Below, one piece after another: positions 22,456-22,529 of a stretch of 64,000 nt of DNA. A model generated the notes under the pieces. The model was not told the DNA's origin. It searched no databases and was given only the letters and a program-made list of their open reading frames with translations. The number at the start of each line of letters is the position of its first letter. Positions within the stretch are counted from its first letter, which is position 1. The stretch lies in the NCBI GenBank assembly GCA_000165345.1, contig CM000434.1, forward strand, positions 256,001 to 320,000, in the 5' to 3' direction. The position numbers were made by a program, and so were the translations under genes.

Positions 22456-22529
22456 GGCTGGATGGCCGAGTGGACTAAGGCGCAGCATTCAGGTTGCTGT
22501 TTTCAGGGGTTCGAATCCCCTTTCAGTCA
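22456..22529 (+). tRNA. tRNA gene, anticodon CAG (reads CUG, Leu). The D-arm is Leu/Ser-like, but the variable region appears to be only 5 nt. It is followed immediately by a Pol III T5 terminator.
   Basis: Manual fold: acceptor GGCTGGA/TTCAGTC (7 bp including 2 G-U). U8. D-arm GCC-GAGTGGACTAA-GGC. Anticodon stem CAGCA/TGCTG with loop TTCAGGT (U33, anticodon CAG, G37). Variable TTTTC. T-arm AGGGG-TTCGAAT-CCCCT. Discriminator A. TTTTT at 22531..22535. No encoded CCA. Confidence 0.75.

Follow-up and report, generated by a model that had tools for sequence, protein, structure and literature searches.

Results

A tRNA gene with a leucine anticodon and a short variable loop

The window, by which we mean the whole 64-kb stretch of DNA analysed here, is approximately 30% G+C and densely packed with long open reading frames (ORFs). 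A spacer of 315 bp separates an 817-aa ORF, ending at 22328, from a 608-aa ORF, whose stop lies at 22644. On the forward strand of this spacer, at 22456 to 22529, stands a tRNA gene with the anticodon CAG, assigned through ARAGORN, the Rfam tRNA family RF00005, its predicted cloverleaf fold and its presence in 12 Cryptosporidium lineages. The flanking 608-aa and 458-aa ORFs are exact matches to the C. parvum Iowa II proteins EAK89797.1 and EAK89795.1. The window thus belongs to C. parvum Iowa II, in line with the genus named in the first-pass annotation of the sequence, and to chromosome 6, a locus tag for which is borne by one protein clustered with the 608-aa ORF.

The protein-coding surroundings of the gene are largely uncharacterised at the domain level. 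When the 16 long ORFs of the window were searched against Pfam (E <= 0.001), 13 gave no domain; a DnaJ domain (13921 to 15030), a CLP1/NOL9-like domain (44289 to 45578) and an acyltransferase (52627 to 54387) were recognised, and none of these three has a bearing on the tRNA. On the reverse strand, an older annotation spanning 22644 to 27143 (CAD98661.1, 1314 aa) appears to merge the 608-aa ORF with a 740-aa ORF, and this fused gene model is probably why the two share one 90% cluster. In C. hominis and C. tyzzeri the 740-aa protein goes under the name of AP2/ERF domain protein, yet it has no Pfam match at the same threshold.

The tRNA gene is 74 nt long and reads GGCTGGATGGCCGAGTGGACTAAGGCGCAGCATTCAGGTTGCTGTTTTCAGGGGTTCGAATCCCCTTTCAGTCA (22456 to 22529), followed by a single C and then TTTTT, with the anticodon at 22490 to 22492. 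ARAGORN calls a tRNA-Leu(cag) at 22456 to 22530, the sole tRNA within the window; its additional base at 22530 is the C that follows A73. The 74 nt align end to end with RF00005 (model positions 1 to 71 of 71), with a bit score of 54.9 (E = 4.5e-9) that exceeds the family's gathering score of 29. The variable region takes no insertion in this alignment and falls into place as a class-I loop, and the minimum-free-energy fold of the sequence is a cloverleaf. Together, the Rfam E-value and the conservation of the gene in 12 lineages exclude a chance resemblance.

The molecule has a type-I architecture, that is, one with a short variable loop. Its acceptor stem (GGCUGGA with UUCAGUC) comprises seven base pairs, G1-C72, G2.U71, C3-G70, U4-A69, G5-C68, G6.U67 and A7-U66, and is followed by the single-stranded residues U8 and G9. 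The D-stem consists of G10-C25, C11-G24 and C12-G23 plus the apposition G13.A22, and closes a D-loop AGUGGACUA, read as A14, G15, U16, G18, G19, A20, C20a, U20b and A21. G26 leads into an anticodon stem of CAGCA with UGCUG, and the anticodon loop is U32, U33, C34, A35, G36, G37 and U38. A variable region of just 5 nt (U44, U45, U46, U47 and C48, at 22500 to 22504 of the forward strand, by direct reading and in the Rfam alignment) connects this stem to a T-arm of AGGGG and CCCCU around the loop UUCGAAU, and the discriminator base is A73.

All the features claimed in a first-pass annotation made from the sequence by eye are borne out. Its reading of a CAG anticodon, a 5-nt variable region and a short-arm fold is present in the sequence, and ARAGORN, RF00005 and the minimum-free-energy fold all agree with it. 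The same is true of its finer detail: the 7-bp acceptor stem with two G-U pairs (G2.U71 and G6.U67), the bases U8, U33, G37 and A73, and the T-loop TTCGAAT and downstream T5 run are all to be read at the expected places. Refolding might have revealed a standard long variable arm, and neither ARAGORN nor Rfam gives one. Moreover, 74 nt with four normal arms leave no space for a long variable stem-loop, which shows the original parse to be correct.

Promoter elements, terminator and flanking sequence

Both internal promoter elements of a Pol III-transcribed tRNA gene are intact. The A box of type-2 Pol III promoters has the consensus TRGCNNAGTGG, and the sequence TGGCCGAGTGG at 22463 to 22473 (+; tRNA positions 8-19) fits it. 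Similarly, the B box consensus is GGTTCGANTCC, which GGTTCGAATCC at 22507 to 22517 (+; tRNA positions 52-62) fits. Both were read directly, and both are invariant in the alignment of the tRNA orthologues (A3). A run of five T residues at 22531 to 22535 (+), beginning two bases past A73, provides a Pol III terminator. Runs of at least four T residues lie within approximately 15 nt downstream of the gene in 11 of the 12 lineages, with C. felis having TTTATT only.

Upstream of the gene, the otherwise A+T-rich spacer contains a G+C-rich motif, TTGCGCCCG, at 22437 to 22445 (+), or -19 to -11 relative to the tRNA. Its GCGCC-like core is kept in eight intestinal-clade species (alignment A1) and is absent in C. 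ryanae and C. serpentis. A second conspicuous block in this A+T-rich spacer, TTTTTAATAT, lies at about -39 to -30, so that the two blocks together span 22417 to 22445. It has the same distribution, being kept in the eight intestinal-clade species of alignment A1 but not in C. ryanae or C. serpentis. The two blocks may represent a candidate upstream Pol III promoter element or leader signal, and we include TTGCGCCCG only tentatively as part of the tRNA gene feature.

The tRNA is conserved across the genus Cryptosporidium

Orthologous loci were retrieved through the two flanking proteins, and their tRNAs called with ARAGORN. A tRNA(cag) lies in the syntenic position in C. parvum, C. tyzzeri, C. 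meleagridis (two assemblies), chipmunk genotype I, C. ubiquitum and C. canis, and likewise in C. felis, C. ryanae, C. xiaoi, C. serpentis and two Logan assemblies. All 12 lineages examined thus carry the gene, the gastric-clade species C. serpentis included, and each locus retrieved holds this single tRNA and no other. The comparison with orthologous loci that the first-pass annotation had proposed therefore finds both the gene and its 5-nt variable region kept throughout.

The 74-nt orthologues align without a gap (alignment A3, with C. xiaoi read separately). Their variable region reads UUUUC, apart from a U45A change in C. ryanae and C. xiaoi that makes it UAUUC, and so the long stem-loop (more than 10 nt) by which class-II tRNAs are defined is absent from all 12. 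Across the 11 aligned lineages 67 of the 74 positions are invariant, and the C. xiaoi sequence is that of C. ryanae. Overall, identity among the orthologues is 96-100% (71-74 of 74 positions), while between the same lineages the proteins encoded nearby drop as low as 24-50% and the flanking spacer is scrambled.

The few substitutions that fall within stems all preserve pairing. Pair 6:67 switches from G.U to G-C, while three compensatory double changes replace A-U with G-C at 7:66 (C. ryanae and C. xiaoi), A-U with G-C at 28:42 (C. serpentis) and G-C with A-U at 29:41 (C. ryanae, C. xiaoi and C. serpentis). Standard pairs occupy 80 of the 80 pair cells, compared with 31-53% after a shift of the 3' partner by one to three columns. 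In a moderately strong shuffle control, 5 of 500 shuffles reached the observed covariation score; these counts rest on four distinct tRNA sequences only, and the statistics are accordingly modest, though their direction leaves no doubt. Two of the double changes affect pairs of the anticodon stem, which neither promoter box covers, and selection therefore acts on the RNA fold as well as on promoter sequence. Given pair-preserving changes beside diverging neighbour proteins, the tRNA is, as judged from these alignments, under purifying selection genus-wide, and is no degenerate copy.

The D-arm motif and short-arm leucine tRNAs elsewhere

The first-pass annotation had described the D-arm as being of the Leu/Ser type. 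A scan for this D-arm, GCCGAGYGGNNTAAGGCG, placed at the class-I distance from a T-arm, gave one match in the window against zero expected. The same pattern was also recovered from at least 120 JGI metagenome contigs and four viral contigs. Most of the 124 tRNAs listed with it are bacterial-looking, with 86 being tRNA-His(GUG) and 16 tRNA-Cys(GCA). The sequence described is present, but because the motif is common in tRNA-His and tRNA-Cys the D-arm alone is no leucine signature, and its value as proof of leucine ancestry is weakened. Among the metagenome matches listed (L012-L131), the tRNA-His(GUG) genes form a large and very uniform group, many of them with an encoded CCA; for these, as for the tRNA-Cys(GCA) genes, GCCGAGYGGNNTAAGGCG is the standard D-arm, although it is usually regarded as Leu/Ser-like.

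Few of the matches listed pair a leucine anticodon with a short-arm body. The one sharing the CAG anticodon (L062, JACCDU011360686.1, 290 to 363, +) has a Leu-like D-arm, G1.U72, A73 and a following T run. Its contig, which also has a 69-aa ORF, looks eukaryotic from its (ATCT)n and (CT)n microsatellites, and the tRNA could be either a functional analogue or a tRNA-derived pseudogene. Two further short-arm tRNAs carry the anticodon AAG, one (L075, 1020 to 1094, +) beside a Gly(ACC) tRNA in an array of seven tRNAs within approximately 600 bp, and the other in L122 (432 to 506, -). A short-arm tRNA with CAA lies beside a tRNA-Asn on a 145-kb IMG/VR viral contig (L132, 1265 to 1338, -), and one with UAA is found in L080 (776 to 851, -). 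As far as such matches are a guide, type-I Leu-like tRNAs may be common in viral or mobile tRNA arrays, and short-arm Leu-like tRNAs may be more widely scattered than the literature suggests.

CUG means leucine throughout the genus

The cognate codon of the tRNA, though rare, is in use in every species. CTG accounts for 57 of the 16,212 codons in the long ORFs of the window (3.5 per 1000), and for 2.9-6.9 per 1000 codons in the orthologous genes of each species. One 229-aa ORF (9323 to 10012, +) shows a leucine preference opposite to that of every other ORF in the window, with 16 CTN codons (two CTG among them) to 2 TTR. It adjoins a G+C-richer stretch (0.37 at 10-12 kb), and could be highly expressed or simply spurious.

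The meaning of CTG was examined in eight orthologous gene groups from 11 lineages, with CTG masked as X before alignment and the codons mapped back afterwards. The sample consists of fast-evolving genes from one chromosomal neighbourhood, and comprises about 1,900-4,500 codons per species. In pairwise comparisons CTG faces leucine encoded by non-CTG codons in 50% of cases (plus a further 10% to CTG itself), and the corresponding values for the other leucine codons are 52% (CTA), 54% (CTC), 55% (CTT), 53% (TTG) and 51% (TTA). Next in frequency opposite CTG come Ile (8%), Phe (7%), Ser (4%) and Val (4%), a pattern shared with the other leucine codons. At conserved columns, defined by at least 80% agreement among at least four other species through different codons, 42 of 45 CTG codons face leucine, as do 56 of 69 CTA, 30 of 42 CTC, 37 of 66 CTT, 78 of 105 TTG and 107 of 156 TTA codons. 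Across these eight gene groups and 11 lineages we see no sign of a second meaning or of a reassignment of CUG. The match between the CTG profile and that of the other five leucine codons, combined with the count at conserved columns, establishes CUG as leucine across the genus. The gene thus unites a leucine anticodon (one of the NAG or YAA set) with a cognate codon that means leucine.

Discussion

A predicted cytosolic type-I tRNA-Leu

The first-pass annotation left three options for this gene: a functional but atypical tRNA-Leu, a tRNA whose identity has changed and a degenerate copy. Genus-wide conservation, compensatory stem changes and the leucine meaning of CUG all favour the first, and make it the probable answer on sequence grounds. 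More fully, we predict with good confidence that the locus encodes a functional, nuclear-encoded, cytosolic type-I tRNA-Leu(CAG) that is transcribed by Pol III, reads CUG and is charged by the parasite's single leucyl-tRNA synthetase (LeuRS).

In the mechanism we propose, the variable stem-loop of tRNA-Leu(CAG) would have shrunk to a U-rich linker of 5 nt, producing a class-I-shaped tRNA-Leu. This linker has the canonical class-I length and would keep the G15:C48 and G26.U44 contacts. The long arm would be dispensable, and would have been deleted from a class-II ancestor. The single cytosolic LeuRS would then leucylate the tRNA without a long arm, through contacts with the acceptor end, with the elbow and core, and possibly with the anticodon loop. 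A likely recognition set would include A73, the elbow and core elements U8:A14, G15:C48 and G18G19/T-loop, C20a, C3:G70 and G5:C68, as well as A35 and G37 in the anticodon loop. The tRNA would serve as the main CUG decoder, in place of a wobble-reading tRNA-Leu(UAG).

What the tRNA retains is consistent with such a mechanism. A73, C3:G70, G5:C68, C20a, U8:A14, G15:C48, G18G19, a canonical T-loop, A35 and G37 are all invariant in alignment A3, and the core identity features listed for tRNA-Leu (A73, U8:A14, G18G19, 15:48, C20a and G37) are present without exception (PMC9976931, PMC6614811). Minimal tRNA-Leu variants with A73 are leucylated in the E. coli and human systems provided that the contacts between D-loop and T-loop are intact, and in yeast G18, m1G37, pseudouridine-55 and A73 matter most in vivo (PMC9976931). 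The elements used by human LeuRS comprise A73, C3:G70, A4:U69, G5:C68, C20a and the variable region (PMC6614811). Since the variable region belongs to this human set, charging of the short-arm tRNA may be inefficient.

Alternative explanations

One alternative holds that the tRNA accepts, entirely or in part, some amino acid besides leucine, which would make CUG a reassigned or ambiguous codon like that of the CUG-Ser and CUG-Ala clades of yeasts. Loss of the class-II hallmark could indeed weaken recognition by LeuRS. The yeast CUG-Ala reassignment, moreover, involved a tRNA with the anticodon CAG. The reassignment to serine also involved anticodon-CAG tRNAs (PMC11342251). Against this, CTG has the substitution profile of the other five leucine codons, faces leucine at nearly all conserved columns and shows no other residue as prominent. 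In addition, under established identity rules (PMC9976931) the tRNA has C3:G70 instead of the G3:U70 that marks alanine, and lacks the long arm and G73 that mark serine, carrying A73. With the codon tests contradicting it, we rejected CUG reassignment as a candidate, and regard altered identity, the second option of the first-pass annotation, as very unlikely. A different proposal places the locus outside translation, as a decaying pseudogene or as a Pol III/TFIIIC site (a chromatin boundary or regulatory small RNA), with CUG read by tRNA-Leu(UAG). U34 tRNA-Leu species do read CUG in some eukaryotes, and A and B boxes alone could persist for TFIIIC binding. Nonetheless, conservation extends beyond these boxes to the whole molecule, the anticodon loop does not vary at all, and two compensatory double changes fall in the anticodon stem, a part of the gene that neither box covers. 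A decaying copy would not hold 96-100% identity beside neighbours at 24-50% protein identity; genus-wide conservation with compensatory changes led us to discard the pseudogene, and runs counter to the degenerate copy of the first-pass annotation. The tRNA genes of Cryptosporidium, furthermore, number 45-51, or roughly one for each isoacceptor (PMC10813123), and we consider a non-translational role improbable.

Two further possibilities concern the short arm itself. Classic type-I tRNA-Leu is mitochondrial (PMC6614811, PMC9976931), and a nuclear-encoded, organelle-type tRNA-Leu could in principle be imported for organellar translation. The D-arm, T-arm and anticodon loop of the Cryptosporidium tRNA are, however, of the canonical cytosolic kind, unlike the degenerate mitochondrial kind. 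To our knowledge Cryptosporidium has no organellar genome, no organellar translation and no apicoplast, and without organellar translation a nuclear tRNA can serve the cytosol only. The genus has mitosomes only (PMC8318970), while the sole LeuRS gene reported is cytoplasmic and appears to be single in Cryptosporidium genomes (PMC5038320). Import is in our view extremely unlikely. Equally, a long variable arm or an intron might have been hidden by an artefact of hand-folding. We found nothing in favour of this and its probability is minimal: the gene is 74 nt long, a class-I molecule with a 5-nt variable region comes out of ARAGORN, of the Rfam covariance model and of the minimum-free-energy fold alike, and the orthologues align gap-free. 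This candidate too was dropped, leaving a functional cytosolic tRNA-Leu as the preferred reading. It is also conceivable that Cryptosporidium has undergone a wholesale remodelling of leucine identity, and that a type-I tRNA reserved for the rarest leucine codon acts as a slow, potentially regulatory decoder, but we think this unlikely.

Significance

The gene itself is presumably already annotated as a tRNA-Leu in genome databases. We found no published description of a short-arm tRNA-Leu(CAG) from Cryptosporidium in the open-access literature, and its unreported part appears to be the short-arm architecture and the genus-wide conservation of that architecture. [quoted passage not shown]

A cytosolic short-arm tRNA-Leu contradicts the textbook generalisation on the class-II arm. 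In vitro work had already established that the arm can be dispensed with, and the genetic code is unaltered here. A short-arm tRNA-Leu kept throughout a genus nonetheless amounts to a natural experiment on what a eukaryotic LeuRS needs from its tRNA, and on class-II tRNAs losing the arm with the genetic code unchanged. Should whole-scale remodelling of leucine identity prove true, it would be without precedent among eukaryotic cytosolic translation systems. Cryptosporidium LeuRS is a drug target, and the substrate set of the enzyme consequently matters. For annotators, the implication is that a short-arm tRNA with a leucine anticodon is not necessarily a pseudogene or a sign of codon reassignment.

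Comparison with known systems

The class-II human tRNA-Leu-CAG resembles the Cryptosporidium tRNA in the CAG anticodon with G37, in A73, in a 3-bp D-stem with G13.A22, and in G18G19 and C20a. The likeness extends to C3:G70, G5:C68, the T-loop UUCGAAU and a cognate codon that means leucine. As a lead, we take the two to differ at approximately 2 of 20 bases over positions 8-26 and to have identical anticodon loops. The principal difference is that Cryptosporidium has UUUUC where the class-II stem-loop of more than 10 nt stands in the human tRNA. Pair 4:69 also differs, being U-A in Cryptosporidium and A-U, an identity element, in human (PMC6614811).

Yeast tRNA-Ser(CAG) of the CUG-Ser clades and tRNA-Ala(CAG) of Pachysolen likewise place CAG on something other than a standard class-II leucine body. 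In these, serine or alanine identity elements accompany CUG codons at serine or alanine positions, whereas the Cryptosporidium tRNA has a Leu-like body and CUG at leucine positions. It lacks G3:U70, G73 and a long arm. In the nev-tRNAs of nematodes, which are likewise nuclear tRNAs of a eukaryote, the class of the variable arm is also at odds with the anticodon. Their arrangement is the reverse, with a long variable arm joined to non-Leu, non-Ser anticodons and an alternative code for leucine (PMC3333845).

According to a 2023 review of identity, tRNA-Leu keeps its long arm everywhere but in animal mitochondria, where a tRNA-Leu with a short variable loop is leucylated via A73 and A14 with no long arm (PMC9976931). 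Mitochondrial tRNA-Leu is nonetheless encoded in the organelle, has a relaxed structure and relies on a mitochondrial LeuRS of its own, whereas the Cryptosporidium tRNA is nuclear and has canonical elbow contacts between D-loop and T-loop. [quoted passage not shown] S. coelicolor and Cryptosporidium (for its LeuRS, PMC5038320) are alike in having a short variable loop on one leucine isoacceptor and a single LeuRS in the compartment. They differ in that the S. coelicolor enzyme is of bacterial type and uses a leucine-specific domain, and that the anticodon there is CAA. Cryptosporidium, by comparison, is a eukaryote with a cytosolic LeuRS of the archaeal/eukaryotic type, and only one of its leucine isoacceptors is seen here. 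On the features compared, the Cryptosporidium tRNA(CAG) is best described as a eukaryotic cytosolic type-I tRNA-Leu, which resembles S. coelicolor tRNA-Leu(CAA) in its situation and has no relation to the mitochondrial tRNAs.
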